Source: Candidatus Gagatemarchaeum stordalenia
GTDB taxonomy: Archaea > Thermoproteota > Nitrososphaeria > Nitrososphaerales > Gagatemarchaeaceae
Direction of reading: 5' to 3'
DNA: 32,000 nt
Assembly (NCBI GenBank): GCA_003164815.1
Contig: PLUF01000050.1
Location: 1 to 32,000, forward strand
The position numbers and the translations under genes are program-made. Shown here piece after piece: positions 2,015-28,319 of the stretch (positions are counted from its first letter, which is position 1; every line of letters starts with the position of its first letter). Below the pieces are notes generated by a model that saw only the letters and a program-made list of their open reading frames with translations, was not told the origin of the DNA and made no database searches.

Positions 2015-2770
2015 TCAGAGCAGAGGCGCCCAGCCGGCCTTCTTCGACCACGTCGCTACTGCGTCGTGTGCGTGTATCGACTCGAAGCACCTGGCCCGGA
2101 TGAAGAGCGAGTTCGGGAACCTCTTCGCGCACTCCCTCACGAGGTCTTCGGCGAACCTTCCGTTCTCCTGGGCCTCGAGGATCTTCCTCGCCTCCTCGAC
2201 CCTCTTCATCTTCTCGGTGGGCATGGCAGAGAAGCACTCCTCCACCTTCCCGATCGTCTCCATCATGTCCAGCGAGCCCTTCCTGTCGAGGACCATTGTT
2301 ATCTCTGCCCGCTGCATGTGACCAATCCCTATCATCTTCTTGCTGCAGGGACAGGCGGTCATCCCCTTGGCGTTGAACTGGTATCTCACGGCGCCCTTCT
2401 CGGTCGTCCTTATGGCGACTGGAATAAACTGGTCTGAGTAGGGTATCTCGAACCTGCATGTGACCCAGGAACCCGGCTGTGTCCTGTTCACCTCCCGGCA
2501 GATCGACTTCAGCCACCCCTCGATGCCAGACCCGTCCTTCGCAGAGGCGGCGTGGACGAGCCTGCTCATGTGGACCCCCCTGTGGAGGCCCGTGGAGGTC
2601 TGGATCGTCAGGAAGACCGGTATCGAGGTCTGGCCGTTGTGATAGAGGATCTGGAGGTCGGACACGCCTGCGTCTACGACCACCTCGGAGGGTTCGCTCT
2701 GGGTGTCGGCCAAGACGTCCACTAACTGAGTCCTGGCAACCCGTTCGTCCTGATCCTTTCCGCGACGCAC
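2015..2770 (-). CDS. GTP cyclohydrolase of the COG1469 family (FolE2 / MptA type)
   Basis: 251 aa with family motifs GVHMSRLV, MTACPCSKKM, GHMQRAE and ESIHAHDAVA. It lies immediately downstream of queC and queD on the same strand. Confidence 0.85.
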   Translation of the reverse strand: MRRGKDQDERVARTQLVDVLADTQSEPSEVVVDAGVSDLQILYHNGQTSIPVFLTIQTSTGLHRGVHMSRLVHAASAKDGSGIEGWLKSICREVNRTQPGSWVTCRFEIPYSDQFIPVAIRTTEKGAVRYQFNAKGMTACPCSKKMIGIGHMQRAEITMVLDRKGSLDMMETIGKVEECFSAMPTEKMKRVEEARKILEAQENGRFAEDLVRECAKRFPNSLFIRARCFESIHAHDAVATWSKKAGWAPLL

Positions 2771-2774
2771 GAAT

Positions 2775-3440
2775 CTAGCCGGCGCGAACCCGTTTTAGAC
2801 CCTTTCGGTCTCCGGACGCTCTCAGAGGGTCGACGACACCCGCCTCGCGGAACGCCCGCTCCCTCCCCAGGCAACCGTCGCACTCCCAGCAGTGGACGCT
2901 CCCGGCCCTGTGACAGCTCCAGGTGTCCTCTAGGGGGACCCCGAGCCTCGAAGCGAGGGCGACGACCTCGGCCTTGCTCATCGCCCTGAGCGGCCTCCAG
3001 ATCCTAAAGTCCTGCTCCCTGAGCCTGGCCGAGCCGGACCTGAGGGTCCGCTGCAGGTTCCGGAAGAACTCGTCGCTGGTGTCCTCGAAGACCGCCCTGT
3101 CCTCCCTGTTGTGCCCCCCGGCGACGCGGGAGGCCCCGACCTCCTCCGCGAAGGCCGCGGCCACGTTGTAGTAGATCGAGTTCTTCATGGGGATGTAGGT
3201 GGAGGGCAGCCCCGAGAGCCGTTCGAGCGGACCGATGTCGCCGATCTCCCTCAGCTCGGGCATAGAGAAGAACCTGTGGTCCTCGACTCCCGCAGCGGCG
3301 CCCAGGCGCCTCGCGGCCCACAGTTCCCCCTTGGCCATGCCGTGGAACCTTATGGTGAGGGCCCTGTTGATGTACCCCTTCCTCTTCGAGAGGAAGAGGC
3401 AGGCGGCCGAGTCGATGCCTCCCGACAGGAGGACTATTAC
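2775..3440 (-). CDS. queC: 7-cyano-7-deazaguanine synthase QueC (5' boundary unresolved)
   Basis: The ORF track starts at ATG 3338, but the same frame continues upstream as STEVIVLLSGGIDSAACLFLSKRKGYINRALTIRFHG, carrying the PP-loop SGGxDS. The C-terminal Zn site is CHRAGSVHCWECDGC. There is no ATG/GTG/TTG upstream of the PP-loop (see finding). Confidence 0.85.
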   Translation of the reverse strand, partial: VIVLLSGGIDSAACLFLSKRKGYINRALTIRFHGMAKGELWAARRLGAAAGVEDHRFFSMPELREIGDIGPLERLSGLPSTYIPMKNSIYYNVAAAFAEEVGASRVAGGHNREDRAVFEDTSDEFFRNLQRTLRSGSARLREQDFRIWRPLRAMSKAEVVALASRLGVPLEDTWSCHRAGSVHCWECDGCLGRERAFREAGVVDPLRASGDRKGLKRVRAG

Positions 3441-4324
3441 TTCCGTCGACGCTCTGCCTCTCTGGAATGGATGAGCGCGAGAAGGTGGGTCCCCTTGTTC
3501 AGCCCTTCGTAGACGTAGACGCCGACGGACTCGACGTTCTCGGGCATCCTGGGGGCTATCCTCCGGACCAACTCCTGCGCCAGGTTCTCCACGGTCGCCT
3601 CCTCCTCCAGGAGGACGGTGGTCTTGGTGGGCACCTTCATCTCGAACCTCCCATGCACCGTGTCGAAGCCGATCCTAACGCTCCCCTTCTCCCTGCCCAG
3701 GACGTACCTGCTGCTGATGAAGAGCTTGTGGTCGAGGGCGCGGACCGCCTCCCTGATTATCGGCTTGGCGTCATTGAAGTCGACGACCATCCCGTCCCTG
3801 GGCGAGCCAGCGAGCTCGACCAGCACCGACGAGGTGTGCCCGTGCATCACGGAGCACTTCTCGGTCTTGGGGAGTATGTGCGCGTAGTCGAAGTTGAACG
3901 ACGGGTCGTCGAGGAAGATCGTCTGGAGCCTCTCTTTCGAGCGGTCGCCCGACCGGCGCACCCGCGTCCCGGAGTCGAGGACGTCGCTGCGCGAGTCGCT
4001 CTGCGAGATCACCACGCACTCCCTCCCGGCGCGGGCGGCCTTCCTCCTCTCCTCGGCGCTCAGGTCATCCCCGACAAGAATCAGCCTGTCGCCTATCGCA
4101 AAATCAGCTCGCCTTGGCGACCCGGTGTAGATGGGCACGTCCGTCCCGTACTCGATGCCCGAAGCGTCCAGGACCCTGCTCACCAGCGCGTGCAGGCCCG
4201 TCGGGTACTCCCTGCCTCCGCTCATGTAGACCCTCGAGTAGCCTCCGCCGTCGAGTTCCTTTACCCTCGCCGCGATGCCGTCCAGGAGGTCCTTTTGCAC
4301 GATGGCGCGCAGCCGCGGTTTCAT
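3437..4324 (-). CDS. queD: QueD/6-carboxytetrahydropterin synthase (PTPS-fold) domain fused to an unknown ~130-aa N-terminal domain
   Basis: The C-terminal half, FNFDYAHILPKTEKCSVMHGHTSSVLVELAG...VVDFNDAKPIIREAVRALDHKLF, is the PTPS/QueD signature. I cannot assign residues 1-130 to a family. The TAA stop overlaps the queC 5' region. Confidence 0.8.
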   Translation of the reverse strand: MKPRLRAIVQKDLLDGIAARVKELDGGGYSRVYMSGGREYPTGLHALVSRVLDASGIEYGTDVPIYTGSPRRADFAIGDRLILVGDDLSAEERRKAARAGRECVVISQSDSRSDVLDSGTRVRRSGDRSKERLQTIFLDDPSFNFDYAHILPKTEKCSVMHGHTSSVLVELAGSPRDGMVVDFNDAKPIIREAVRALDHKLFISSRYVLGREKGSVRIGFDTVHGRFEMKVPTKTTVLLEEEATVENLAQELVRRIAPRMPENVESVGVYVYEGLNKGTHLLALIHSREAERRRK

Positions 4325-4344
4325 TTATAGTGTTTACTCAGGGA

Positions 4345-4352
4345 CTTTTAGA
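4345..4352 (-). promoter_or_regulatory. TATA-like box upstream of the queD-fusion gene
   Basis: The minus strand reads TCTAAAAG, centred about 24 nt upstream of ATG 4324 in the 31-nt spacer after the tRNA. Confidence 0.4.
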
Positions 4353-4355
4353 TGT

Positions 4356-4430
4356 TGGTGCGGCGTGCGGGATTCGAACTCGCGCGACAGGCTTGGGAAG
4401 CCTATATCCTAACCACTGGATCAACGCCGC
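4356..4430 (-). tRNA. tRNA-Gly (anticodon CCC) with genomically encoded CCA
   Basis: The minus strand reads GCGGCGT-TG-ATCC-AGTGGTTA-GGAT-A-TAGGC-TTCCCAA-GCCTG-TCGC-GCGAG-TTCGAAT-CCCGC-ACGCCGC-A-CCA. It has a 7-bp acceptor stem, a 4-bp D stem, a 5-bp anticodon stem and a TTCGAAT T-loop, with one A:C mismatch in the T stem. Confidence 0.85.
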
Positions 4431-5149
4431 TCCAGAATCTTATCGAGCAAGTTGCTCCGAAGAGGGTCAGTTAAACCTATTCTTGCCTTGAGTGCCCTTA
4501 GATCACGTGTCCCTCTTACAGTTACGGAGTGAAGGGGGACTCTGCGCATTCTCTTCTTCGAACTATGCCAATGGCTACCAATTCCAAATGACTTGAGAAC
4601 CTCAGCGTACTGCTTGGCCAGTCTCTTCGAGGTAACGGCAAACTCAACGCGTGCGTTCTTCAGGTTAACTGAACCATCCCCCACAATCAACCCGCGTATT
4701 ATACCAAGGCGAAAAGCGTCGCCTAGATTTAGCGATTTGCGTCTGAATGCTATGGTATGAGTCTTGTTTCCAGTCCAGAACAGAAACCGTTTCAAGAAGT
4801 CGAGAATCTCCCTGCCATGAATAGTGATTCGAACAGTGTGTTGCTTGGGATACGACCAAACCTTCGGTCTTTTCCCCAAGACCTTCTCCATCTTGTCTGT
4901 TAGGACTTCGGCATAGATGGCTTGGTCCTCTGAAAGCACAATTGTAACTCGGTAATGATGCGATTTCTTGTCAGATTGGAAATTACCATCACTTGCGAAC
5001 GCCCCTAGGAATTCCCCGAGGTCTGCATTTGGCTCGAGTTCGAACTTGAGCGGAAGATATCTTCTTCCGAAGTTCTTTCTTACGTGATAGTATACCGTAG
5101 TCTTACTTCGACCCAATTTCGAGGAAATCACATTCAGACTGAAGCCCAT
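4421..5149 (-). CDS. Double-motif LAGLIDADG homing-endonuclease-like protein with an N-terminal HTH
   Basis: The two dodecapeptide motifs are LGEFLGAFASDGNF and GIIRGLIVGDGSV. The N-terminal HTH-like segment is FSLNVISSKLGRSKTTVYYHV. GC content is clearly lower and codons are A/T-ending. The last codons (GAG CGG CGT TGA) overlap the first 10 nt of the tRNA. Confidence 0.8.
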   Translation of the reverse strand: MGFSLNVISSKLGRSKTTVYYHVRKNFGRRYLPLKFELEPNADLGEFLGAFASDGNFQSDKKSHHYRVTIVLSEDQAIYAEVLTDKMEKVLGKRPKVWSYPKQHTVRITIHGREILDFLKRFLFWTGNKTHTIAFRRKSLNLGDAFRLGIIRGLIVGDGSVNLKNARVEFAVTSKRLAKQYAEVLKSFGIGSHWHSSKKRMRRVPLHSVTVRGTRDLRALKARIGLTDPLRSNLLDKILERR

Positions 5150-17241: not shown

Positions 17242-18153
17242 TCAACCAGTTGAATCGCCCAGCGGAGGGGTAACGCCCTCGACGCCGGGTGCCACCGCGC
17301 CACGGGTCAGAGGAGCGGCCGAGATGGCTGTCACAGGGTAGCCGCCCTCGACTCTCAGCGACGAGGCCGCGCTCTCCTCCTTCTCGAGGGACTTCTGGGC
17401 TATCGTCGCGGCGCCGAACGCCCCTATGATCTGAGGCTCAGGCGGGATGAGCAGCTTCGTCTTAAGCTCCTTCTCGAGCGCCGCGACCATCCCAACGTTC
17501 TTCGCCACACCGCCGCTGAACACAACCGATTCTCTGACCCCCACGTACCTGACCATTATGGAGACCCTCCTCGATATGGACTCGCAGAGTCCCGCAGCGA
17601 CGTCTTCCCTGCTCCTGCCGTTGGTGAGGAGGGAGATCACCTCGGACTCGGAGAAGACGGTGCACATGCTGTTTATCCTGGCCGGGTTGGCGCTCTTGAG
17701 GGCGAGCTCGCCCATCTTGGCGACGCGAACGTGCAGCACCCTGGCCATCACCTCGATGAACCTGCCCGTGCCGGCCGCGCACCTGTCGTTCATAACGAAG
17801 TTCGCCACCTGGCCTTCCTCGGTAAGGCTGATCGCCTTGCTGTCCTGGCCGCCGATATCGAGGATCGTCCTCGCCGAGGGGCAGACGGCCTTTGCGCCCT
17901 CCGCGTGGGCCGTGATCTCCGTGACGGACTTGTTGGCCTCGCTGAACACCTTCCTCCCGTAACCCGTCGAGACGATGAAGTCAATGTCCCCCCGGGCCAG
18001 CTGGGACTCCTCGAGCGCCAGTCTCAGGGCGCGACGCGCGGCCCCGTTGCCGTCGTAGCCGGACGGGAGGATCTGGATGGAGAGCATCTTCCCGTCGGCG
18101 AGGATGGCGACCTTCGTCGCCACCGCGCCAATGTCGACTCCCGCGACGGCCAT
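17242..18153 (-). CDS. BcrAD/BadFG-type activator ATPase (HgdC / DCCP-reductase-like), with a ~45-aa C-terminal extension
   Basis: GVDIGAVATKVAIL, TGYGR, EITAHAEGA, DIGGQDSK, NDRCAAGTGRFIEVMA and CTVFSESEVISL (the two Cys-containing motifs), and FSGGVAKN. Confidence 0.9.
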   Translation of the reverse strand: MAVAGVDIGAVATKVAILADGKMLSIQILPSGYDGNGAARRALRLALEESQLARGDIDFIVSTGYGRKVFSEANKSVTEITAHAEGAKAVCPSARTILDIGGQDSKAISLTEEGQVANFVMNDRCAAGTGRFIEVMARVLHVRVAKMGELALKSANPARINSMCTVFSESEVISLLTNGRSREDVAAGLCESISRRVSIMVRYVGVRESVVFSGGVAKNVGMVAALEKELKTKLLIPPEPQIIGAFGAATIAQKSLEKEESAASSLRVEGGYPVTAISAAPLTRGAVAPGVEGVTPPLGDSTG

Positions 18154-18171
18154 CCGGGCCCACCTCTGCTC

Positions 18172-19458
18172 TTACACAGGGCTGAGCATCTCAGTGAAGG
18201 CCTCGACCCTCGTCCTGATCTGCTCTACGTCCTCGGAACCGTAGTCGGTCTCGACCTTCAGCATCGGGACGCCCGCCTTCTTCAGGGCCTTGTCGACCTT
18301 GATCGCCTCGATGTTGTAGGTGTGGCAGTACTGTAGCACATTGTAGACGACGCCGCTGGCGTTGTACTCCTTGGCCATGTCGACGACCTTGGTCACCCTG
18401 TCGTCGTTGGGGGTGAAGCACGCGCACGAGATGTTGTGGTACCTGTCCCAGATCGCCTCCAGGAGGCTGTCCATGGAGTCGCCCTTGGGCTCGACCAGGT
18501 CCGTGAAGTACCGGGAGCCAATGCAGCTCTCCTCCGCCACCACGGGCACCCCCGTCGACTCGATGATCGAGTGCAGCTTCCAGTTGGGGATGGCCATCGG
18601 GCAGCCGGAGAACATCAGCCTCGGCTTGCTCGGGTCGCCGACTCCGACGCCGTCGGCGTTCCGCTTCTCCAGCTCGTCGGCCAGTTCGTTGGTCTTCAGG
18701 GTGAACCTGTTGACGTCGTCGTAGAAGCTCATCTGGTTGACGAGCAGGGCATCGAGGCCGCTTATCGGCGTGGGGGAAGCCCTGCGAGTGTCGCTCACCC
18801 TCTTCATCGCCTTCTTCTTCTCGTTGATCAGCCGGATGGCCTCCTTCAGGGAGTCCTTCTCGATGACGTTGCCCGTCAAGGTCTCCATCTGCTGCTTGAA
18901 CAGCTTGATCTCCGAGAGCCAGAGCGCCTTGGACTGCTCCGTGTCCACCTTGTGGGGGATCTCCATCACGTAGGTGGGCGTGTAGTCCGCCAGGACCTCG
19001 TAGACCTTCTTCTTCGCGTCGCACGTGGTCTCACCCACGACCATGTCGCAGGAGTTGAAGTACGGGCAGGTCGCTCCGACCTTGAACCCGAAGAACGACT
19101 TGACCAGCGGGCAGATGTTCCTGGGCAGCACAGTCTCGGCGTCGGGTATGGAGAAATCGGCGCCTCCGCAGAGACCGACCATGGTGGCGTCGGCGGCGTA
19201 GACCAGCTCCTCGGGCACGTAGAGGCAGAAAGCCCCTATAATCTTCTTTCCCGCCTTCTTGCGGTCGACCAGCTCCTTGATCCGGAGCCCGTGAACCTCC
19301 GAGATGACGAAATCGAAGTATCCCATCCCGGCCGGCCGGTTCTTCTGCGTCATGAACAGGTCCCCGTATCCCTTCGCCAGGGCGTTGAGGAGCACGTCGT
19401 GCTTCTCGAGATTGAGTCCCAGGTCTTTCCACATTTCGGCGTATTGCTGGTTTGTCAA
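18172..19458 (-). CDS. 2-hydroxyacyl-CoA dehydratase / BcrC-BadD family protein, present as a single subunit (double-cubane-cluster-protein-like)
   Basis: 428 aa with the family's Cys-rich motifs (GAFCLYVPEE, GLCGGADF, CPYFNSCD, TTCDAKKK, SGCPMAIPNW, EESCIG, LQYCHTYN). It sits 18 nt upstream of the activator gene. No second dehydratase subunit is present. Confidence 0.85.
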   Translation of the reverse strand: MTNQQYAEMWKDLGLNLEKHDVLLNALAKGYGDLFMTQKNRPAGMGYFDFVISEVHGLRIKELVDRKKAGKKIIGAFCLYVPEELVYAADATMVGLCGGADFSIPDAETVLPRNICPLVKSFFGFKVGATCPYFNSCDMVVGETTCDAKKKVYEVLADYTPTYVMEIPHKVDTEQSKALWLSEIKLFKQQMETLTGNVIEKDSLKEAIRLINEKKKAMKRVSDTRRASPTPISGLDALLVNQMSFYDDVNRFTLKTNELADELEKRNADGVGVGDPSKPRLMFSGCPMAIPNWKLHSIIESTGVPVVAEESCIGSRYFTDLVEPKGDSMDSLLEAIWDRYHNISCACFTPNDDRVTKVVDMAKEYNASGVVYNVLQYCHTYNIEAIKVDKALKKAGVPMLKVETDYGSEDVEQIRTRVEAFTEMLSPV

Positions 19459-19634: not shown

Positions 19635-19940
19635 CTAGGCGCGGAAGTCCTTCGGGTTGGCTGTCCCCTCGACTACGTCGACCGACTTCTCGGTCCACTT
19701 GTAGTGGCAGTGCTCGCACTCGTAGGTGGTCTCGAACGTCTCCGTCTCCACCGCGACCTCCTCGGATAGCTGGTTGGGAGGGGGAGGCTGGAGGCTGGAG
19801 TCGTGCATGAGGCCTTCGGTGCGGCTCGCCAGGTCGAGGTCCACGTGCTCCATGTGGTGTTCGGTCGAGACCAGCTCCTTCCCCTTCTTCTCGACCGAGA
19901 AGTGCTTCCCGCAGTTCGGGCATTTCTTGAGCAGGTCCAT
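19635..19940 (-). CDS. Zinc-ribbon protein (101 aa), function unknown
   Basis: CPNCGKHF near the N-terminus pairs with CEHCHYKW near the C-terminus, with an acidic/Pro-rich linker between them. Confidence 0.65.
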   Translation of the reverse strand: MDLLKKCPNCGKHFSVEKKGKELVSTEHHMEHVDLDLASRTEGLMHDSSLQPPPPNQLSEEVAVETETFETTYECEHCHYKWTEKSVDVVEGTANPKDFRA

Positions 19941-20234: not shown

Positions 20235-21467
20235 ATGCCAAGCTCCCACAAGTCCCTCTGGGTCATCCCTATCCTCATGGCCTGCCTGGTCGGGTCCTTC
20301 GTCTTCCTCCCGGGAACCAGCGCTGCGTCCGGCTCTGTGAATGCGACGCTCTCGTCTGTCAGCCTCGGGACCGTACCCAGGGGCGTCGCGGTCAACTCGA
20401 ACTCGGGCGTGATCTATACGTCGCTCTTCCTGAACGGGACGACCCTGGCGCTCTCTCCCGTCACTTTCACGGTCTTCGGTAGGGTCGCGACACCCTCCCC
20501 TTACGCTGTAGCCGTTGACTCCGTCACGGGCCTGGCGTACGTCTCGCAGGGCGAGCAGGCGTCGATCATCGTGCTGGACCGCTCCGGGAACACGGTCCTG
20601 GCGAGCATCAATGGAGCGGGGACGCCGTACGCGCTGGTCGTCGACGAGCCTCAGAACCTCCTCTTCGCCGCTGACACGAGCGCCAACTCCCTCTGGATCG
20701 TCAACTGCTCGTCGGACACGGTGGTCTCCCGGGTGCCAATGGGCGACACCTCGGCGCTCGCGTTCGACCCCGTCAGTCACGAGGCCTTCATCGGTAACGT
20801 CTCCTCCGGCTATGACGGCGGCTCCGTCTCCGTCGTGAGCAGCGACAGCATGAAGATAGTCAAGACCTTCTCGGTCCCCGTCGCCCCGATGCGGTTCGCT
20901 GTCGACCCTGTCTCCCACCTCCTTTTCGTGACGGGGACAGGGCCCAACTCCACGTCGCCCAACTTCCTCGCCATCAACGACGAGACCTTCCAGACCGTCT
21001 ACGCGCTCCATCTCGGCGACTCACCGCAGCTGATGACCGCCGCCTCCTCGCCCGATGTCTACGTCAGCGACCCCGGAGTAAACAGACTCTACGAGGTCGA
21101 CGGAGCCAGCGGCCAGGTCCTCCTCAACTCGACCGGCGACCCGACCGTCGGCATCACGTTCGCAGGGATCACATCGATGGCCTTCAGCCCAATCACCGGG
21201 ACCCTCTACGTGACCGAGAACGACGTAACAAGCCTGATAGTCCTGAGCACCTCAACGACGACTTCCTCCTCACCGACCCTCCACGCCCCCGTATGGTACC
21301 TCATCGCGCTGATTATCATCGGGGCTTCGCTCGTAGTGGCCCTCTTCTTCGTTCGGAGGCGGGATCGGATAAGACGAAAACCAGCGGCGGAGCGACCTGG
21401 CGGTCTGTCTACCGCGTCTTCAGGGGCGCCGGCATGGACTCCGCCCCGGCCTGCATCCCATCGCTAG
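20235..21467 (+). CDS. Cell-surface beta-propeller repeat protein (YVTN-type repeats) with a signal peptide and C-terminal Ser/Thr linker plus TM anchor
   Basis: The signal is MPSSHKSLWVIPILMACLVGSFVFLPGTSAA. Repeated units include GVAVNSNSGVIYTS, YAVAVDSVTGLAYVS, YALVVDEPQNLLFAAD, LAFDPVSHEAFIGN and FAVDPVSHLLFVTG. The C-terminus is STSTTTSSSP, then WYLIALIIIGASLVVALFFV, then RRRDRIRRK. Confidence 0.8.
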   Translation: MPSSHKSLWVIPILMACLVGSFVFLPGTSAASGSVNATLSSVSLGTVPRGVAVNSNSGVIYTSLFLNGTTLALSPVTFTVFGRVATPSPYAVAVDSVTGLAYVSQGEQASIIVLDRSGNTVLASINGAGTPYALVVDEPQNLLFAADTSANSLWIVNCSSDTVVSRVPMGDTSALAFDPVSHEAFIGNVSSGYDGGSVSVVSSDSMKIVKTFSVPVAPMRFAVDPVSHLLFVTGTGPNSTSPNFLAINDETFQTVYALHLGDSPQLMTAASSPDVYVSDPGVNRLYEVDGASGQVLLNSTGDPTVGITFAGITSMAFSPITGTLYVTENDVTSLIVLSTSTTTSSSPTLHAPVWYLIALIIIGASLVVALFFVRRRDRIRRKPAAERPGGLSTASSGAPAWTPPRPASHR

Positions 21468-22293
21468 CCTCTTCGGTCGAGATGTGGGTCTTCTCGGGCC
21501 TCTCGAGCACTCCGGTAAGGCGGAGGTGCTTCAGGGACCCTCCCTTCCGGGCGTGTATCACCTCGGCCATTATGCTAACCGATATCTCCTGGGGCGTCAC
21601 GGCGCCGATGTCGATGCCTACCGGAGCAAAGACCGTGAGGAGTTTATCGAGTGGCGCACCCTGCTCCAGCAGCTGCTTGAACGTCTGGTTGACCCTGTTC
21701 TTGCTCCCGATCATGCCGATGAACCTCGCCTTCGAGTTCAGGACCGTCTGGAGCGCCTCGAAGTCGTACCGGTGGTCGGTCAGCATCAGGATGCTGTCGA
21801 AGGGCGTTATGGGTATCTCCTTGATCTTGTGCAGCACGCCCTGGGTGTAGATCTCGCAGCCTGGGAACGACTCCTCGTCCGCGAAGGGGTCGAGCACGAT
21901 CACGTCGTAGGCGAGCATCTTCGCGATCTGGGCGCAGCTCTTCGCGATCCCTCCCGAGCCGAAGATTATCAGCCTCTCACGGGGTTCGACCAACTGCATC
22001 AGCATCTTGAGCTTCCCGCCGCAGGACATGCCGATCCCGCTCCAGCTGTCGTCCCCGAGGTTGAACTCCTCGACCTTGGTCTTGCCGTCCTTGAAGACGG
22101 TCCGTGCCGACTTGACGATGTATCTCTCAACGCAACCGCCGCCGACCGTCCCGCACGTCGGGCCGTCCTCTGATATCGCCATCGCCGCCCCGCTCCCCTG
22201 GGGTACAGATCCGTCCGACTCGATGACGCTGGCAACGACGACCTTCTTCCCCTCGGCCAGCCTCTTTCCGACAAAGCTGTAGAACTCTTCCAT
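21409..22293 (-). CDS. xdhC: XdhC/CoxI-family molybdenum-cofactor insertion/sulfuration chaperone (both domains)
   Basis: The N-domain is KKVVVASVIESDGSVPQGSGAAMAISEDGPTCGTVGGGCVE. The Rossmann C-domain is RLIIFGSGGIAKSCAQIAKMLAYDVIVLDPF...MLTDHRYD...FIGMIGSKNR...APVGIDIGAVTPQEISVSIMAEVI. Confidence 0.9.
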   Translation of the reverse strand: MEEFYSFVGKRLAEGKKVVVASVIESDGSVPQGSGAAMAISEDGPTCGTVGGGCVERYIVKSARTVFKDGKTKVEEFNLGDDSWSGIGMSCGGKLKMLMQLVEPRERLIIFGSGGIAKSCAQIAKMLAYDVIVLDPFADEESFPGCEIYTQGVLHKIKEIPITPFDSILMLTDHRYDFEALQTVLNSKARFIGMIGSKNRVNQTFKQLLEQGAPLDKLLTVFAPVGIDIGAVTPQEISVSIMAEVIHARKGGSLKHLRLTGVLERPEKTHISTEEASDGMQAGAESMPAPLKTR

Positions 22294-22325
22294 CTCGTCT
22301 CACCTGTGCCTATACTCCATGCCGA

Positions 22326-22685
22326 TTAGTCCCAGCGCGCGCCGCACGGGCCGACGACCGGCATCGGCTTCTCTACCCTGACCTCGGGCGACTTCTTCAG
22401 GAGGATATGGAAGTCCGGCCCGCTCTCGTACGACTTTACCACCTGCTGGCCGCGGTTCCAGCAGTACTTGAGGACATTCTCCTTCGAGACGTGCTCGTTC
22501 ACGACTATCTCGAGGACCTCGCCCAGGGCCGCTTCCGAGAGTGCCTTCTTGACCATGAGGATGGGCTTGGGACAGAGCTCGTCCCTGCAGTCTACGACCC
22601 GCGCCACCGCTCCCTGGGAATCGTTAACGTCGGTTGGCGTTGACGCCGCGGCCCCTTCATATTGAACCGAGACTGTCTTCTCCAT
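22326..22685 (-). CDS. tusA: TusA/SirA-family sulfur carrier with N- and C-terminal extensions
   Basis: VVDCRDELCPKPILMVKKALSEAALGEVLEIVVNE contains the conserved Cys-Pro-x-Pro active-site motif. At 119 aa it is longer than the roughly 75-80 aa typical of the family. Confidence 0.85.
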   Translation of the reverse strand: MEKTVSVQYEGAAASTPTDVNDSQGAVARVVDCRDELCPKPILMVKKALSEAALGEVLEIVVNEHVSKENVLKYCWNRGQQVVKSYESGPDFHILLKKSPEVRVEKPMPVVGPCGARWD

Positions 22686-22717
22686 AGAGGAAGGACGCGC
22701 TTCCTCTGATATATATG
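22686..22717 (-). promoter_or_regulatory. Perfect 8-bp inverted repeat between a TATA-like box and the tusA start codon (candidate operator)
   Basis: AGAGGAAG (22686-22693), spacer GACGCG, CTTCCTCT (22700-22707), then GATATATATG (22708-22717) centred about 28 nt upstream of ATG 22685. Confidence 0.5.
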
Positions 22718-22849
22718 GGCGACGGTTTCGTCAAGGCAAAGCCATTACGCTCTTTCTGGGGATTCCTGTCCATCTTTGAGGCAAGGCGCGCCAAGAACTG
22801 CAAGCTCACTCGATAAAGTGCACGCGATCTTGCGAGAGTCGAGGGAATG

Positions 22850-23722
22850 CTATTGCTCGTCCACGGTCTTCCTGACCGCTTCGCCGATGTGGTCCACTAT
22901 CTCGAAGACCCTCGTGGCGGGAGTCGGATTGGAGAGCGCCCCGGCGAGCCTGTTCGCCTTCGATGCGATCAGCCCCGCTTTTACCGGGTCGAAGCCCGCG
23001 GAGATCAGCGCCGAGACTATCCCGGTCAGCGTGTCCCCGGTCCCCCCGATCGGCTCCATCGCTGGAATGTTCGGCTCCGAGACGGTGTGGATGATCTTCC
23101 CGTCCTCGACGATGAAGTCGGTCGGCCCCTTCACCAGGAGGTAGCGGGGAGTGTTCTTCGCCGCGTATGCCTGTGCTATCAATCTCGGCACCTCGGTCGT
23201 GTCGACCTCGAAGAGGGCCGCCTTCACATAGGCCGGGTGACCGGCGTCGGGGTCGGCGAGGAACGATATCTCGCCCGCGTCCGGAGTGAAGAGGTCAAAC
23301 TTGTCGCAGACCCTCGTCGCCTTCGCTATGAGGAGCGCGCCGGCGTCGGCCACAAGGAAGGGCCTCTTCGCCCAGTAGTCGGCCATCTCGACGAACCCGA
23401 GGAACTCGTTCCTGAGCGGGAGTATGTAGTGCAGAGTGACAATCGAGGGCCCTAGTCCTCCCGCCTCCTCGGTCAGGTACTGGTAAACCAGCTTCGACCC
23501 CGCGCCCTCGCCGAGGTCCCCGGCGACAACGCTCATGGGTGGCTCCCCACCGAGGGCCTCGGTCGTCTTCACCGCCGCAGCCATCATCGCCGTGGCGCCG
23601 ATCGAGAGCATCTCTGGGGGTACCTCCCTGTCGCCTATGCTCATCCTCCTCCCGTCAAGCTTCACCCGCCCGACCGTTAACGAGACGTCTGACGTGGGCA
23701 GGGTCCCCGAAAGGAGGAGCAT
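22850..23722 (-). CDS. Ribokinase-fold protein of the YjeF C-terminal (NAD(P)HX dehydratase / carbohydrate kinase) type, divergent
   Basis: The C-terminal motif PIGGTGDTLTGIVSALIS matches the GxGDxLxG signature. FLVADAGAL, FTPDAGEISFL and LLVKGPTDFIV match the family order. The N-terminal third is atypical. Confidence 0.55.
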   Translation of the reverse strand: MLLLSGTLPTSDVSLTVGRVKLDGRRMSIGDREVPPEMLSIGATAMMAAAVKTTEALGGEPPMSVVAGDLGEGAGSKLVYQYLTEEAGGLGPSIVTLHYILPLRNEFLGFVEMADYWAKRPFLVADAGALLIAKATRVCDKFDLFTPDAGEISFLADPDAGHPAYVKAALFEVDTTEVPRLIAQAYAAKNTPRYLLVKGPTDFIVEDGKIIHTVSEPNIPAMEPIGGTGDTLTGIVSALISAGFDPVKAGLIASKANRLAGALSNPTPATRVFEIVDHIGEAVRKTVDEQ

Positions 23723-24268
23723 CTAGGCCACTTCCTTCCACTGCTTGAGCGCCACCTCGTACGCCTTCTGGAGCGTGTAGGCGCACAGGGTGAACCCGGT
23801 CTGGGCCGGCGGCGCAACCTCGTCCAGGGTTTTGCCGATCATCATCACTGCCAGCAGGGGGATGTCGGGACAGCCTCCGCCCGAGACGTTCACGATCACG
23901 CCGGACTTCTTCTGATACGTCAGCTTCATGTTCCCGACCCTGACCATGACGTAGCCGCCATAGTCGACCTTCTTGAGGAGCTTGCTGATCTGGAGCTCCG
24001 GGAGGTTTCCGCTGAACTTGAAGATCACGTCCCAGACCTTGATCCCGTGCTCCAGCAGCTTCTTCTCGGCATCCACCGTCTCGCTGGTCGGCACGGAGAT
24101 CGAGAGGTCGCAGCCCGTCCTCACGTCCGGAGGCGGGGCACCGGAGCGGGTGTGGAACCCTGCGGTGATTAGAATGTCCTCCGCCCTCATCCCGTCCCTG
24201 AAGTGCTCGAAGAGGAAGACGGAGCGGCCGTCATCCTTGGAGGAACTGGGCACTGATGCCACGGTCAA
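23723..24268 (-). CDS. DUF3343 (putative Se/S-carrier-like) domain fused to an unknown C-terminal domain with a GGGCPD motif
   Basis: The N-terminal segment VFLFEHFRDGMRAEDILITAGFHTRSGAPPPDVRTGCDLSISV fits the DUF3343 pattern, a small alpha/beta unit ending in a conserved Cys-containing strand. The C-terminal ~110 aa (VNVSGGGCPDIPLLAVMMIG) is unassigned. The stop abuts the next gene's ATG (TAGATG). Confidence 0.55.
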   Translation of the reverse strand: MTVASVPSSSKDDGRSVFLFEHFRDGMRAEDILITAGFHTRSGAPPPDVRTGCDLSISVPTSETVDAEKKLLEHGIKVWDVIFKFSGNLPELQISKLLKKVDYGGYVMVRVGNMKLTYQKKSGVIVNVSGGGCPDIPLLAVMMIGKTLDEVAPPAQTGFTLCAYTLQKAYEVALKQWKEVA

Positions 24269-24384
24269 TCGTCCCTCTGTCCGGACGTTGTAACCGTCGG
24301 GGCTATCGTTCCCGTTCCAAGGCAGCCCTGCCCGAGCAACGCCAGGAAACCCTTATCCTCAGCATTTCAACCCTTCGCGATGCC

Positions 24385-24738
24385 TTGACCGAGTTCGGGA
24401 TCGTCCTTCGCGGCGGCCCCTACCAGACGCAGAGGTGGGAGACCGCCTACGGGATGGCCGACGCCGCCCTGAAGCGTTCCGACGGGGTCACCATCTTCCT
24501 TTACATGGATGGCGTGTACAACGCGCTCGCTCCCCAGGACTTCGAATCGATGAAGAAGTTGCCGAAGGACCACATCGAGGCCCTGCTCGACCGGGGCGCC
24601 CAGATATTCGCGTGCCTGACATGCACAGACAACAGGGGGCTCGAAGACGGCAGGGCATACCTGAAGCGCGTCCAAGTGACGGGGTCGACCGAGGCCGGAG
24701 AGATGGTCAGCAAGTGCGACCGGATCATAAACCTCTGA
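24385..24738 (+). CDS. DsrE/TusD-like sulfur-relay protein
   Basis: Starting at TTG 24385 gives 117 aa: MTEFGIVLRGGPYQTQRWETAYGMADAALKRSDGVTIFLYMDGVYNA...IFACLTCTDNRGL...SKCDRIINL. The tracked 24256 start adds an off-pattern leader that overlaps the divergent gene. Confidence 0.8.
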   Translation: MTEFGIVLRGGPYQTQRWETAYGMADAALKRSDGVTIFLYMDGVYNALAPQDFESMKKLPKDHIEALLDRGAQIFACLTCTDNRGLEDGRAYLKRVQVTGSTEAGEMVSKCDRIINL

Positions 24739-24748
24739 GGGTGGTGGC

Positions 24749-25009
24749 TTGACAGTCTATCTGGTCGATGAGCCCTTCGTCGATATCGCGATCGCCTATG
24801 CGGCCAAGGACAGCACCGCGCAGATCGTCCTCTTGCAGGACGCCGTGTACTCAGCGGCACATATGCGCGCGTCCGGGCCGGTGTACGTCGTGGCCGACGA
24901 CATCGCCCGCAGGGGGCTGAGCTCGAGGATGCCTCCCTCCGTGCACACGATCAGCTACGACGAGCTCGTGGCGATGATGGAGAGAGAAAGGGTAGTCAAC
25001 TTCCTATAG
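24749..25009 (+). CDS. DsrH/TusB-like sulfur-relay protein
   Basis: 86 aa with IVLLQDAVYSA...VYVVADDIARRGL...ISYDELVAMM. TTG start preceded by the SD-like GAGGGTGGTG. The protein contains no cysteine. Confidence 0.7.
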   Translation: MTVYLVDEPFVDIAIAYAAKDSTAQIVLLQDAVYSAAHMRASGPVYVVADDIARRGLSSRMPPSVHTISYDELVAMMERERVVNFL

Positions 25010-25018
25010 CTGATCAAC

Positions 25019-25372
25019 ATGCAAAAGAAAGTCTTCATCTCGATTCTCAGGCCGCCTGTGGGCACGTCATACTACACGGAGGGTCTCAGGTTGGCGCTCG
25101 GGGTCCTCGGGGGGACTTACGACCACGAGGTCACCATCGCCCACGTCGGGAAGGGAGTCCTTTGCGCGCTCAAGGGCGTCGACAGGTCCTACGCCCAGGG
25201 CTTTTTGGAGCTGTTCCAGAAGGACGGCGCTGGCAACGTCTTCTACGTCGAGAGGGAGTCGCTGGCGGAGGAAGGTGTATCCAAGTCCGAACTCGCTGAG
25301 GGCTTTGGCATCGCCTCCCGCGACGAACTGAGGGAGAAGATGCTCAGCTCGGATGCGGTCTTCAGCTTCTGA
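25019..25372 (+). CDS. DsrF/TusC-like sulfur-relay protein
   Basis: 117 aa with KKVFISILRPPVGTSYYTEGLRLALGV...VTIAHVGKGVLCALKG...FYVERESLAEEGV...SSDAVFSF, colinear with TusC/DsrF. Confidence 0.7.
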   Translation: MQKKVFISILRPPVGTSYYTEGLRLALGVLGGTYDHEVTIAHVGKGVLCALKGVDRSYAQGFLELFQKDGAGNVFYVERESLAEEGVSKSELAEGFGIASRDELREKMLSSDAVFSF

Positions 25373-25418
25373 ATTCGGCTCGAGGACGGCCAGCCCCTAC
25401 GCCTTTGACTCCAAGCGC

Positions 25419-26237
25419 CTAGCCGGACGAAAGGGCGAACGCCGTGACCCGCCTCACGAACTCCCTCGGGTTGGTGACGTGAGGCGAATGACCTGCCTCT
25501 GGGTCGAATTCGACCTTGGATTTGGGAATGGCCTTCGCGATCCTCTCGACGACCATCTTGGAGCCGCGCATCCCCCTCCCTCCGTACGTCAGCAGCGCTG
25601 GTCTGTCGAAACGAGCGAGCGCTTCGAGGTCGACGCTCGACCCTTCGCCGTCCCGGGTCTCATCCAGCCATGTATCGGCGTTCGCGACCATCCTCTCCCT
25701 CGCCTGGGGCGACATTCTGTCCCACGCCCCCGGTCTGGAAGTCAGGGTCTCGACGAAGAGCCTTGCGGCACCGATCCTGTCCCCGCTCTCGAGCACCCGG
25801 ACCACCTGATCCCTCCGCTTGTTCCCCTCGGCCACCGCTGTCTGGACCAGCGGGTCGTCCGTGAGAAGTTTGAACAGGGGAGGCTCATGGGCCGTCAGAC
25901 TGCGGAATACCTGCGGTTGAGCCGCGGCCAGCTTGAGTGCTATCGACCCCCCGGAGGAGTTCCCGACGATATGGGCCGGTGACATCTCCAACCGGGCGAG
26001 CAGCGCCGCGGCATCCCGGGCGTCCTCCTCCCCGCTGCCCTGGGTCCCGGGCTTCTCGCTCAGCCCGTGCCCCCTCCTGTCGTAGGTCACCACGCGGAAG
26101 CTCTCGGAGAGACCGGCGACCACAGGATTCCAGTTGGAGTGGTCCGTCCAGGAGCCGTGGATGAGCAGGAGAGGGTCTCCGCGGCCTCCCAGCTGTTCGT
26201 AGTACAGTTTGACACCGTTTGCTTCCGTAACCGGCAA
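25419..26237 (-). CDS. Alpha/beta-fold hydrolase
   Basis: LLLIHGSWTDHSNW (oxyanion region), nucleophile elbow VGNSSGGS, and C-terminal GHSPHVTNPREF (catalytic His region). Confidence 0.85.
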   Translation of the reverse strand: MPVTEANGVKLYYEQLGGRGDPLLLIHGSWTDHSNWNPVVAGLSESFRVVTYDRRGHGLSEKPGTQGSGEEDARDAAALLARLEMSPAHIVGNSSGGSIALKLAAAQPQVFRSLTAHEPPLFKLLTDDPLVQTAVAEGNKRRDQVVRVLESGDRIGAARLFVETLTSRPGAWDRMSPQARERMVANADTWLDETRDGEGSSVDLEALARFDRPALLTYGGRGMRGSKMVVERIAKAIPKSKVEFDPEAGHSPHVTNPREFVRRVTAFALSSG

Positions 26238-26326
26238 ATCGCAAGTGGTTAGCAGGCCGAACAGTTAGTCATTGCGGCCCCAGCGATTTCACTCCGGGAT
26301 CGCAGAGAGCGGAATCTTCCCTAGGG

Positions 26327-26866
26327 CTAATCGGACGATCCAGGCTGCAACCTGTTCTCAACCTGCAGCTGATCGTCGGCCGGCCTCAGGTCCTTCCGGA
26401 TCACCGGTTTCCCGTACTTGGTCGCCACGACCTCGGCCATGATGCTCAGCGCGATCTCCGGCATCGTCCTTGCGCCGATGTCCGCGCCGACGGGGCCCTT
26501 GATGGAGGAGACGAACTTCTCATCGACTCCCCTGGCGCGAAGCGCCCCGGTGTCGTCCCTTATCCTCTGCCTGTCGCCGAGGAGCCCGACATACCTGAGC
26601 TTGAACCCCGAGAGCGTCTGGAGGACGTCGGCGTCTCGCTCGCTGTGGGTGAGCACTATCGCCGAATCAGACTCTAGGAACTTGAATGAGGCGATGTCGT
26701 AATCCGGCGCGGCGAACAGCTGGTCTGGCTGCGCGCCAATCATCGGGCTGTGGTCCATCACTACCACCTCGAAGTCGAGAATCTTGGCAAGCCTGACCAG
26801 GGCATCCTCGAGATCCCTTGTAGCTCCTTCGCCGATCAGCACGACCCTCTCTTTCGTCTGGTTCAT
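26327..26866 (-). CDS. Stand-alone XdhC C-terminal (Rossmann-like) domain protein
   Basis: ERVVLIGEGATRD...VLTHSERDADVL...YVGLLGDRQR...GPVGADIGARTMPEIALSIMAEVVA is colinear with the C-domain of the XdhC at 21409-22293. There is no N-terminal XdhC_CoxI domain. Confidence 0.7.
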   Translation of the reverse strand: MNQTKERVVLIGEGATRDLEDALVRLAKILDFEVVVMDHSPMIGAQPDQLFAAPDYDIASFKFLESDSAIVLTHSERDADVLQTLSGFKLRYVGLLGDRQRIRDDTGALRARGVDEKFVSSIKGPVGADIGARTMPEIALSIMAEVVATKYGKPVIRKDLRPADDQLQVENRLQPGSSD

Positions 26867-26966: not shown

Positions 26967-28319
26967 TCAAAGGACCGGCGTGAGCATAGGATAGGGAAAG
27001 CCGCGCTCGTAGTCGTAGTACACGTGCACTATCGGACCAGGCGGGTTTATGCTATGGACCGTGAGGGAGTCATCGATGATCTCGAACTTAGCGTGGAAGT
27101 CGCAGAGGCCCTTGAGTTGGCTCGCCAGCCTCGAGGAATTGCCGCACGCGAGGGCCAGAAGATCCGCGTTCCTACGGACGAGCTGACACGTCCTTGAGAT
27201 GTAGTACAGCAGCTCCCTCTCTCCGAAGAGCGACTCCAGCGTGTCCAGCCCTAGCATCACTACAAGCGGACGCTTGGTCTTTCCCTTCAGGTCGGCCATC
27301 TTGGTCCACAGCTGGTTGAAGCAGTCCTCGATGGAGACCGACGACAGCGAGAAGAACCAGGGGTCGTCGTACTTCTCGAAGGCACCGACGGCCAGGTTCT
27401 TCGAGACGCTCTCGGCCGGGAGGATGAGCCTTGCGAGCTTGGCGATCTCCGTGTACTTCCCGCCTCCTCCCGGGACCTTCAGGGCGCACCCGCCGTTGAG
27501 GATGAAGTTGCAGAAGACGATGTTGTAGATGCCGTAGTGCACGGCCGAGTTGAGGTTCTCCCCGAACTCAAGGAGGTCGACGCTGCCCTTCTTCCAGCCG
27601 CCGGGGGAACCCACGTCAAAAGCCTTCATCCCCGATGAGTAGACATGCTCAGAATGGGGGATGGGGCGGAACTCAGCGCTCTTCTCAAAGGAGGCAGGGT
27701 GGGGCGGACCTGCTTCGAATTCCTTGAATCTCCCCCCTGCGAGGGTGAAGAGCGCCTTGGGGCGAAGGATCGGGCCCCCTCTGAGCTTCTCCGTCTCTAT
27801 CGTCCGCACCACCGCTCCGTCATGCAGCTCCTTCGTGAGCGTGACGATGGCGTCCACCAGGTAACTTATCGTCGTCTCCTCAGGCTCCTCGCTGAGGAAC
27901 ACGAGTTTCTTGTTACGGGACTCCGCCACCACCAGGAGCGTCTTCTCGATCTTCACCCTCTCGACGCTCGAGACCTCCTTCGCTATTCCGTCCCACGAGT
28001 CCAGGACGATCACCTCCTTCACAGGCTCTCGGCCCCCCTCCACTATCTGGCGGAGGACATCGCTCGGGGTGGCCAGCCTCATGTCTCCCATCTCGACCGA
28101 ACCGGAAGGACCCTGGGTGCTTCCACTGGAGATTATGAGCTCCTTAACGCCCGGTATCTGCCCCAGCAGCTTCTCCCTCGAGACCCGGGTCGAGATGTAG
28201 ACCCCGCCGCCTGCAGCCCGCAGCAGCTCAAGAGCGAAGGTCGTCTTCCCGCAACCGGGCTCGCCCTTTATCAGAATCGCCTGCACCGCGTCGGAGAGCA
28301 GCGAGGTGATGGTCGTCAA
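26967..28319 (-). CDS. KaiC/RecA-superfamily ATPase with two tandem domains; only the first has a Walker A
   Basis: Domain 1 has Walker A GEPGCGKT (nt 28242-28265), Walker B-like EVIVLDSWD and ETEKLRGGPI...FTLAGGRF. Domain 2 (from about residue 215) keeps the fold-like pattern (SSGMKAFDV..PGGWKKGSVDLLEFG) but lacks GxxxxGK[ST]. Confidence 0.75.
   Translation of the reverse strand: MTTITSLLSDAVQAILIKGEPGCGKTTFALELLRAAGGGVYISTRVSREKLLGQIPGVKELIISSGSTQGPSGSVEMGDMRLATPSDVLRQIVEGGREPVKEVIVLDSWDGIAKEVSSVERVKIEKTLLVVAESRNKKLVFLSEEPEETTISYLVDAIVTLTKELHDGAVVRTIETEKLRGGPILRPKALFTLAGGRFKEFEAGPPHPASFEKSAEFRPIPHSEHVYSSGMKAFDVGSPGGWKKGSVDLLEFGENLNSAVHYGIYNIVFCNFILNGGCALKVPGGGGKYTEIAKLARLILPAESVSKNLAVGAFEKYDDPWFFSLSSVSIEDCFNQLWTKMADLKGKTKRPLVVMLGLDTLESLFGERELLYYISRTCQLVRRNADLLALACGNSSRLASQLKGLCDFHAKFEIIDDSLTVHSINPPGPIVHVYYDYERGFPYPMLTPVL

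Follow-up and report, generated by a model that had tools for sequence, protein, structure and literature searches.

A cysteine-rich carrier and its kinase-fold partner in an archaeal locus linked to XdhC and TusA-like genes

We analysed a stretch of 32,000 nucleotides of contig PLUF01000050.1 from Candidatus Gagatemarchaeum stordalenia, hereafter the window, in which nine genes at positions 21409-26866 had been singled out by a preliminary description, made from the sequence alone, as a locus for sulfur or selenium trafficking. Our main finding is that two of the encoded proteins, namely, a cysteine-rich carrier that joins the domains DUF3343 and DUF8182, and a kinase-like protein with a ribokinase fold, are one functional unit, on the basis of gene adjacency, abutment and fusion. 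What appeared as a single odd locus thus becomes a widely distributed candidate module, which some lineages have beside YedE, SelD and YqeB/YqeC, and others beside XdhC. We also propose, as a reading that we slightly favour, that the locus represents an archaeal form of the selenium-linked cassette for chalcogen handling (YedE type) that has recombined with genes for molybdenum (Mo) cofactor maturation.

The carrier and the kinase-like protein as one module

Throughout this work, family assignment relies on the Pfam score against its gathering cut-off, and the level of orthology on the score against the cut-off of curated equivalog models (NCBIfam/TIGRFAM); where two values are joined by a slash, the score comes first and the cut-off second. 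The two genes of the module are the following.

23723-24268, minus strand: cysteine-rich carrier, DUF3343 (Se_S_carrier; Pfam 43.2/25) plus DUF8182 (C-terminal half, PF26554, taken from precomputed annotation)
22850-23722, minus strand: kinase-like protein, Carb_kinase/YjeF_C-like, ribokinase superfamily (Pfam Carb_kinase 41.7/27)

A profile search with the carrier family retrieved at least 582 genomic loci from bacteria and archaea, and for the best 80 of these, open reading frames (ORFs) were called and searched with iterated hidden Markov models (HMMs) of the window proteins. The neighbour counts, from which the window and its near-identical contigs were left out, refer to 81 loci in total and to the 32 that have at least 5 kb on either side of the carrier (loci are numbered with an L and single proteins with a P). 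First, the kinase-like gene lies beside the carrier gene in 78 of 81 loci, and in every one of the 32 with sufficient flanks; the three misses are short contigs (L011, L021 and L076), in which this gene probably lies beyond the contig end. Second, a small TusA gene (66/81; 30/32) and a gene for a YedE-type membrane protein (63/81; 28/32) are found near most carriers. Third, SelD (22/81; 12/32), a LysR regulator (21/81; 12/32) and a two-domain YedF (19/81; 11/32) are found near a smaller share. The hosts belong to Desulfobacterota, Dehalococcoidia, Actinomycetota/Coriobacteriia, Clostridia, Nitrospirota, Atribacterota, Bathyarchaeia and Nitrososphaerota. A 273-aa version of the kinase-like protein without a Pfam match, in L001 (10547-11368), was discarded as an artefact caused by a run of masked bases within the gene.

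The two genes are adjacent and often overlap or abut, as they do in the window, where the sequence reads from the TAG stop codon of the carrier directly into the ATG of the kinase-like gene. Moreover, when the carrier profile was run against 1.84 billion protein representatives, five fusions were recovered in which carrier and kinase-like protein form a single polypeptide of 514-588 aa (P0365, P0366, P0368, P0373 and P0384); the C-terminal half of P0365, the sole fusion compared, is 40% identical to the kinase-like protein of the window over its whole length. Because of these Rosetta-stone fusions, we conclude that the two proteins act together. Two copies of the module occur a few kb apart in L013, L017, L018, L019, L052, L092 and L093, and in such two-copy genomes one copy is accompanied by a fused YedE together with TusA and YedF, and the other by a YedE split into two half-size genes.

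The carrier has three invariant cysteines, namely, C53 (TGCD), C133 (SGGGCPDIP) and C162 (LCAY) (alignment A1), and its AlphaFold2 (AF2) model reached a mean predicted local distance difference test (pLDDT) score of 86.9. A sequence search of the PDB gave no match for the carrier and only marginal matches to Nnr for the kinase-like protein (best E 0.0015). The AF2 model of the latter (pLDDT 89; predicted template modelling score 0.91) is placed by Foldseek with PfkB, ribokinase and Nnr (template modelling (TM) scores 0.53-0.59; probability 1.00). Its sequence retains the phosphoryl-transfer motifs ADAG, TPDxGE (TPDAGE in the window) and GGTGDT, the last of which is invariant, as is a segment of its own, DPDAxHPAY (alignment A2).

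These motifs correspond to the DA(D/G)A, TP(H/D)xGE and GG(S/T)GD of the NAD(P)HX dehydratase (YjeF_C/Nnr), a ribokinase-superfamily enzyme with which the fold is also shared. However, the kinase-like protein of the window is only 12-16% identical to solved members of the superfamily, with TM scores of at most 0.59, and it stays far under the equivalog TIGR00196 (41.2/129.85). It also differs from NAD(P)HX dehydratase in a beta-sheet region at its N-terminus, seen in the AF2 model, in the DPDAxHPAY segment, and in its obligatory coupling or fusion to a cysteine carrier. Neither protein has a curated functional model or a solved structure, and in the literature searched we found no mention of their pairing and no paper on DUF8182. 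Therefore, as far as that literature shows, the obligate pairing of carrier and kinase-like protein and their fusions appear to be new.

Selenium genes and selenocysteine forms outside the archaeal clade

Representative neighbours of the module pass curated selenium models. The YedE of L004 reaches 486 against the cut-off of 200 of seleno_YedE (TIGR04112), and the same protein obtains only 26-47 bits with models of the thiosulfate transporter TsuA; two regulators score 257 and 254 against the 250 of LysR_Sec_metab, a SelD 364 against 125, and a YedF 226 against 110. A selenocysteine tRNA (tRNA-Sec) lies within 10 kb of the module in L016 (6129-6214), L036 (8336-8420) and L066 (8300-8391), and in L036 it directly adjoins the selenium-type LysR regulator. 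In Bathyarchaeia the genes form a string, LysR / YedE(N)-YedE(C)-TusA-carrier-kinase-DsrE-TusA-double-cubane reductase-activase-SelD, whose reductase and activase are taken up below.

The carrier itself exists in what is apparently a selenoprotein form, as judged from its reading frame. In four Dehalococcoidia the codon of Cys133 is an in-frame TGA (SGGG*PDIP), the fifth codon of each of the spans L022:2038-2052, L043:4028-4042, L052:10364-10378 and L078:1600-1614, and the frame is conserved downstream. About 16 nt 3' of this TGA, all four share a conserved hairpin that resembles a bacterial selenocysteine insertion sequence (SECIS), GGCUCGGUCUGAGCC / GGCTCGGTCTGAGCC. In L052 the selenocysteine-type carrier belongs to the second copy of the module. 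Since C133 is exchangeable with selenocysteine, it can be taken as a reactive residue of the carrier, and the Cys/Sec pair implies that these Dehalococcoidia hosts decode selenocysteine. Neither PF11823 nor PF26554 figures in a 2026 catalogue of prokaryotic selenoproteins, and within the literature searched, selenocysteine forms of the carrier appear to be new. When scanned for read-through, no TGA was detected within the conserved regions of the TusA, kinase-like, DsrE, XdhC, reductase and activase genes. Another in-frame TGA, in the carrier gene of L008 (10007-10552; a long-read assembly), was rejected as selenocysteine; the flanking sequence is scrambled, and we therefore attribute this TGA to an assembly frameshift.

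A further link is provided by two distant relatives, L092 and L093, whose carriers are 46-51% identical to that of the window. In L093 a single same-strand string reads YedE-carrier-kinase-XdhC-methyltransferase-YqeC-MocA/YgfJ-YqeB, with scores of 162.6/73 for YqeC, 192.4/186.45 for MocA and 311/220 for YqeB, and L092 holds the same gene set (YqeB 347.7; YqeC 165.7). The presence of the pair in one gene string with YqeB and YqeC appears to be new in the literature searched. A candidate SelD gene in L092 was set aside, as only a C-terminal fragment is present. We also note, in L077 (15952-16043), a 92-nt tRNA predicted by ARAGORN with a GCA (Cys) anticodon, immediately 3' of a double-cubane activase gene, which by its tRNA-Sec-like length may be selC-like with a Cys anticodon.

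XdhC, TusA-like and DsrE/H/F genes in the archaeal clade

The remaining genes of the locus, whose nine ORFs have coding-type GC contents at third codon positions of 0.80-0.90, are the following.

21409-22293, minus strand: XdhC, full-length Mo-cofactor chaperone type (Pfam XdhC_CoxI 74.9/24.3 and XdhC_C 106.5/29.7)
22326-22685, minus strand: TusA-like protein of 119 aa whose CPKP motif is intact (Pfam TusA 65.1/28.6)
24269-24384, no strand: divergent intergenic region of about 116 bp between the carrier operon and the DsrE/H/F operon, read from the sequence
24385-24738, plus strand: DsrE/TusD-like protein (Pfam DsrE 67.6/22.7; alternative ORF start at 24256)
24749-25009, plus strand: DsrH/TusB-like protein (Pfam DsrH 35.8/24.4)
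25019-25372, plus strand: DsrF/TusC-like protein (Pfam DsrE 47.8/22.7)
25419-26237, minus strand: alpha/beta hydrolase (Pfam Abhydrolase_6 and Abhydrolase_1)
26327-26866, minus strand: XdhC paralogue with the Rossmann domain only, 179 aa (XdhC_C 86.1/29.7; no N-domain)

The start of the DsrE-like gene at 24385, which gives a protein of 117 aa, follows the gene calls on identical contigs, and the promoters of both operons presumably lie in the intergenic region. The HMM searches bore out the families that had been assigned to the nine genes by eye, every Pfam score lying above its gathering cut-off, and the layout that had been read, with the abutting TAG and ATG, 32 nt between the TusA stop and the XdhC start, and a divergent DsrE/H/F trio, is exact. 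Likewise, as the preliminary description had it, there is no SelD, cysteine desulfurase, DsrC/TusE, MnmA or Mo hydroxylase among the scanned ORFs of the window, some small ORFs of which have no family match at all.

The naming of the TusA and DsrEFH-like proteins holds at the level of superfamily and fails below it, as the proteins stay under every TusBCD, TusA and YedF equivalog cut-off. The best NCBIfam match of the TusA-like protein is the N-domain of selenium_YedF (TIGR03527; 49.4 against a cut-off of 110), and its score for TusA (NF001423) is 28.3 against 78. The trio obtains 36.3/89.25 with TIGR03012 (TusD), 37.9/49.2 with TIGR03011 and 27.2/94.15 with TIGR03010, and the XdhC 209.1 against 350 with NF045664 (XdhC_rel_AOR) and 89.9 against 161.6 with TIGR02964 (xanthine_xdhC). 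Because these cut-offs are not reached, we treat the TusA-like, DsrE/H/F, XdhC and kinase-like proteins as superfamily members and not as orthologues.

The host belongs to a non-ammonia-oxidising, Nitrososphaerota/Conexivisphaerales-like lineage of archaea, found in metagenomes from peat and wood. Conservation was assessed over nine loci of one archaeal (Nitrososphaerota) clade, namely, the window, L086/L006, L087, L007, L008, L009, L010, L091 and L094, whose carriers are 58-82% identical to that of the window. The core genes are thus linked in eight loci besides the window, and because this linkage is conserved clade-wide, a chance juxtaposition, against which conservation of the neighbourhood had been proposed as a check, is excluded. 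TusA adjoins XdhC and is linked to the carrier and kinase-like genes in all nine loci; in six, the TusA-XdhC pair comes directly after the kinase-like gene, and in L009, L010 and L091 it is found 3-8 kb downstream, beyond YedE and some other genes. Eight of the nine loci also contain the DsrE/H/F trio. Outside the clade, XdhC near the module was seen in L092 and L093, beside YqeB/YqeC. The locus had been called unusually composed, which does not apply to the carrier and kinase-like pair, present as it is in at least 582 loci, but does apply to an XdhC adjacent to TusA and accompanied by DsrE/H/F, a combination seen only in this clade.

Two clade relatives, L091 and L094, also encode a three-subunit hydroxylase of the xanthine oxidase family (Fer2 / MoCoBD / FAD_binding_5), with a MoCoBD subunit of 749-788 aa. 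The hydroxylase genes of L091 immediately precede TusA-XdhC, and the [2Fe-2S] subunit has a twin-arginine translocation signal; those of L094 follow XdhC at a distance of 2 kb. Given this hydroxylase near TusA-XdhC, the Mo cofactor on XdhC is the probable target of the locus. A role of this XdhC lineage in cofactor maturation is further supported by the nearest homologues from outside the clade (45-47% identical), since in two of the three contexts examined these sit with MoeA and a MocA-like transferase.

With regard to candidate catalytic residues, the TusA-like protein ends in a tail of the form ...KSPE..KPxPxxGPCGxRWD (codons in 22326-22400), which adds a second cysteine and is present in all seven aligned clade orthologues; from its sequence, this tail is reminiscent of the cysteine-bearing arm of acceptors of the DsrC/TusE type. 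The DsrE-like protein has a CxxC motif (FACLTCTDNRG), kept in six clade orthologues in a sequence alignment and possibly equivalent to TusD Cys78, and a C-terminal cysteine (KCDR) that is conserved in the clade. The DsrH-like protein has no cysteine, and the single cysteine of the DsrF-like protein is not conserved in the clade alignment, so that only one subunit type of the trio looks catalytic, as in TusBCD. Neither the window nor the related loci yielded a TusE/DsrC acceptor.

The genes at the far end of the locus are less constant. The alpha/beta hydrolase, which had been left out of the system from the start, occurs at that position only in the same-species contigs L001-L003; it is a lineage-specific insert and probably no part of the system. 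The XdhC paralogue consists of the C-domain only, as described, and is only partly conserved; L087 and L008 have a full-length second XdhC in the equivalent position, next to DsrF, and short XdhC_C-only homologues exist elsewhere (P0314, P0319, P0330 and P0341). In L087 (6335-8897), an 82%-identical relative, the hydrolase and the truncated XdhC are replaced by an FmdE-domain protein, the full-length second XdhC and a DUF4213/DUF364 protein, all of them further candidates for metal-cofactor accessory genes. Other arrangements are found in L009 (5698-9916) and L091 (5807-9890), where the carrier gene is directly preceded, on the same strand, by genes for both subunits (small and large) of a [NiFe] hydrogenase, for two polyferredoxins and for a HycI-like protease. 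Downstream of YedE, these loci encode a NapH-like Fer4_5 protein as well as a DsbD_2 membrane protein.

A double-cubane reductase and its activase

The locus extends further than had been recognised. Two kb from XdhC (17242-19458) lie genes for a reductase and its activase, which the preliminary description missed and which recur beside the module in other phyla. These genes, and a smaller one between them and XdhC, are the following.

18172-19458, minus strand: double-cubane-cluster ([8Fe-9S]-type) anaerobic reductase (NF040772 484.5/350)
17242-18153, minus strand: ATP-dependent activase, BcrAD/BadFG family (Pfam 196.9 bits; TIGR00241 278.1 against 125.4)
19635-19940, minus strand: zinc ribbon protein of 101 aa with a double CxxC (no Pfam match)

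Reductases of this family were found beside the module in three phyla, that is, in Bathyarchaeia (L016, L036 and L039), in Desulfobacterota (L030, L062 and L077) and in the relative L087, and those scanned score 457-518 bits. The protein of the window passes the equivalog cut-off of the double-cubane system NF040772 and has its activase adjacent; what distinguishes the present case is the physical link of the family to the carrier and kinase-like genes, which the papers searched do not describe. According to Haft (2022, bioRxiv 10.1101/2022.07.06.499078), 955 of 970 proteins above 400 bits to the double-cubane model come from SelD-positive genomes. Because such a reductase is a low-potential enzyme and ATP-driven, it could plausibly supply electrons for the reduction of a bound chalcogen. 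The zinc ribbon protein is kept in the clade between XdhC and the reductase (L086, L087, L002 and L003), and its membership of the system is uncertain.

Proposed mechanism and alternative explanations

Our reading of the locus as an archaeal variant of the selenium-linked cassette, which we consider somewhat better than an even proposition as an overall scheme, runs as follows. First, the cysteines of the carrier would bind reduced chalcogen in persulfide or perselenide form. Second, the ribokinase-fold partner would carry out an ATP-dependent step of loading, activation or release, and the double-cubane reductase with its activase would provide low-potential electrons. Third, the chalcogen would pass via the TusA-like protein, with its CPxP and C-terminal cysteine arm, and via the CxxC of the DsrE subunit of a DsrE2H2F2-type complex. 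Fourth, TusA would deliver it to the Mo cofactor on XdhC, where a terminal Mo=Se or Mo=S ligand would be formed, and XdhC would insert this cofactor into a hydroxylase of the xanthine oxidase family whose genes lie outside the window. Within this scheme, selenium is the likelier chalcogen in this organism, and sulfur the less likely one by a modest degree. The original proposal of sulfur or selenium delivery to a Mo or tungsten cofactor is thereby narrowed: Mo is retained as the target, no link to tungsten was found, and selenium is a credible option because the distant relatives L092 and L093 have the carrier and kinase-like genes beside XdhC, YqeC, MocA/YgfJ and YqeB.

We would tentatively go one step further for the module in general. 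The DUF3343-DUF8182 carrier and its kinase-fold partner may be an unrecognised ATP-dependent system for selenium mobilisation, in which selenium would sit on Cys/Sec133 until activated or released by the kinase-fold subunit, and which might constitute the missing step between uptake by YedE and SelD or the Mo=Se cofactor. In the archaeal clade it would feed the cofactor on XdhC via the TusA with its cysteine arm and the TusBCD-like complex, possibly without YqeB/YqeC. A possibility worth mentioning is that the same system also supplies selenium to the double-cubane cluster.

Several observations weigh against the selenium-linked scheme. Both XdhC-family proteins of the window lack a match to TIGR03309, and a Mo hydroxylase is absent from the 32-kb window. 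The carrier has no PDB fold match at E of 1e-3 or better, and hence a fold without a solved analogue; the kinase-like protein has no invariant cysteine (alignment A2), and its substrate cannot be named. The chemistry of the module is an inference from sequence throughout. Further observations, which count at the same time in favour of a sulfur-only relay, concern selenium itself. In all nine clade loci, selD, yqeB, yqeC and tRNA-Sec are missing from the surrounding 10 kb; the window and its closest relatives (L086, L087, L007, L008 and L094) have no YedE at the locus; DUF3343 proteins occur also in organisms that lack SelD (PMC5322559); and the exceptions to the correlation between double-cubane proteins and SelD are mostly archaea (bioRxiv 10.1101/2022.07.06.499078).

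In such a relay, a desulfurase encoded elsewhere would feed TusA, DsrE/H/F and the carrier, and these the cofactor on XdhC, giving an ordinary Mo=S ligand without any role for selenium in this organism. It would build on established paradigms, namely, the transfer from TusA to TusD/DsrE and the sulfuration of XdhC-bound cofactor by NifS4, and it agrees with the ordinary MoeA and MocA genes that adjoin the XdhC homologues outside the clade. However, elsewhere the module is overwhelmingly tied to curated selenium markers, and selenocysteine-containing members exist; the double-cubane reductase family correlates with SelD; and the TusA-like protein scores higher on the N-domain of YedF than on TusA. 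We therefore hold the sulfur-only relay to be possible and rather unlikely.

A second alternative, which we judge improbable, is that the module serves the general acquisition or reduction of selenium (or sulfur), feeding SelD, detoxification or respiration, and that its proximity to XdhC is secondary and specific to the clade. Most genomes indeed have the module with YedE, SelD and LysR_Sec_metab and without XdhC, the Bathyarchaeia string ends in double-cubane reductase, activase and SelD, and both the hydrogenase and polyferredoxins of L009 and L091 and DsbD_2 and NapH-like Fer4_5 membrane proteins (L009 and L091-L093) lie near it. This is contradicted by TusA-XdhC, linked to the module in every clade locus and directly following the kinase-like gene in most, by L093, in which XdhC-YqeC-MocA-YqeB directly follows the kinase-like gene, and by the window, which has no transporter, hydrogenase or SelD.

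Lastly, a canonical tRNA 2-thiouridine relay (TusA-TusBCD-TusE-MnmA), with XdhC and the other genes as unrelated neighbours, would account for TusA, DsrE and DsrH as domain families of that relay, but it fails because the scores of all four proteins stay well short of the Tus equivalog cut-offs, the genes run E-H-F and not D-C-B, and neither TusE/DsrC nor MnmA is found in the window or any related locus; with an archaeon as the host, and the linkage to XdhC and the carrier and kinase-like genes kept across the clade, it is highly improbable.

Comparison with known systems

YedE/YedF/DUF3343 neighbourhoods and the maturation set of selenium-dependent Mo hydroxylases (SDMH) are kinds already known from comparative genomics, to which the locus can be compared as follows. 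SirA-like protein, XdhC, YqeB and YqeC mark the third selenium trait (Haft and Self, 2008; Zhang et al., 2008; PMC2432076, PMC2276186). The locus resembles the SDMH set (SelD, YqeB, YqeC, YgfJ/MocA, XdhC and SirA/YedF-like protein) in that XdhC and a TusA/SirA-like protein are clustered with chalcogen carriers, and, in relatives, in that the pair adjoins bona fide YqeB, YqeC and MocA (L092 and L093) or a xanthine-oxidase-family hydroxylase lies beside TusA-XdhC (L091 and L094). However, the window and the clade neighbourhoods lack SelD, YqeB and YqeC, and the TusBCD-like trio, the carrier and kinase-like genes and the double-cubane reductase that they carry are not part of the set as described.

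With the YedE/YedF/DUF3343/LysR_Se neighbourhood (Lin et al., 2015; PMC5322559) the window shares a DUF3343 carrier and a TusA/YedF-like protein, and the "2-hydroxyglutaryl-CoA dehydratase subunit plus activase" reported there for Slackia matches the reductase and activase of the window. In contrast, that study describes DUF3343 as a stand-alone protein of 80-100 aa and mentions no DUF8182 extension, XdhC or kinase (except PSTK), and the window has no YedE, no YedF proper and no LysR regulator.

The likeness to TusA-TusBCD of Escherichia coli and TusA-DsrEFH of Allochromatium consists of a CPxP TusA together with DsrE, DsrH and DsrF genes, with conserved cysteines only in the DsrE type. Unlike these systems, the proteins of the window score under the equivalogs, their genes are in the order E-H-F, cysteine is absent from DsrH, a TusE/DsrC acceptor is lacking, TusA carries an additional C-terminal cysteine tail, and the context is one of cofactor maturation, and not of tRNA thiolation or sulfur oxidation. 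Like the XdhC-NifS4 system of Rhodobacter capsulatus, in which the XdhC-bound cofactor is sulfurated by NifS4 before insertion (PMC13653126), and like PaoD, the locus has a two-domain XdhC that would hold the cofactor for addition of a terminal chalcogen before its insertion, but no desulfurase is adjacent in the window, a TusA-like protein takes the neighbouring position, and XdhC falls below the equivalog cut-offs.

The archaeal variant combines a TusBCD-like trio and a cysteine-tailed TusA with one or two paralogues of XdhC and a double-cubane reductase; to judge from the searched literature it appears to be new, and it suggests a possible chalcogen route to XdhC-bound cofactor without an adjacent cysteine desulfurase. 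The module touches on long-standing questions, namely, how trace selenium is separated from abundant sulfur, how selenium is routed to selenophosphate synthetase, and how the labile Mo=Se ligand of selenium-dependent hydroxylases is assembled. A transporter specific for selenium is not known from any organism, according to a 2024 study in which a Tus-like operon of Methanococcus was induced 4.5 log2-fold on selenium depletion (PMC11097638). Since several cultivable hosts carry the module, among them Desulfuromonas sp. CSMB_57 (L031) and Pseudodesulfovibrio pelocollis (L072), it is directly testable.

Other genes of the window

Two further neighbours were considered as parts of the system, a beta-propeller protein (20235-21467) and a KaiC/GvpD-like P-loop ATPase of 450 aa (26967-28319, minus strand), and both were rejected, as they are not conserved with the carrier and kinase-like genes. 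The ATPase gene lies directly past the truncated XdhC and is kept only in same-species contigs. At the other end of the window, a set of genes for 7-deazaguanine (preQ0/archaeosine) synthesis at 2015-5149 includes a FolE2-type GTP cyclohydrolase, QueC and a PTPS/QueD-like protein, and adjoins a tRNA-Gly(CCC) (4356-4430) and a gene for a LAGLIDADG-domain protein (4421-5149).

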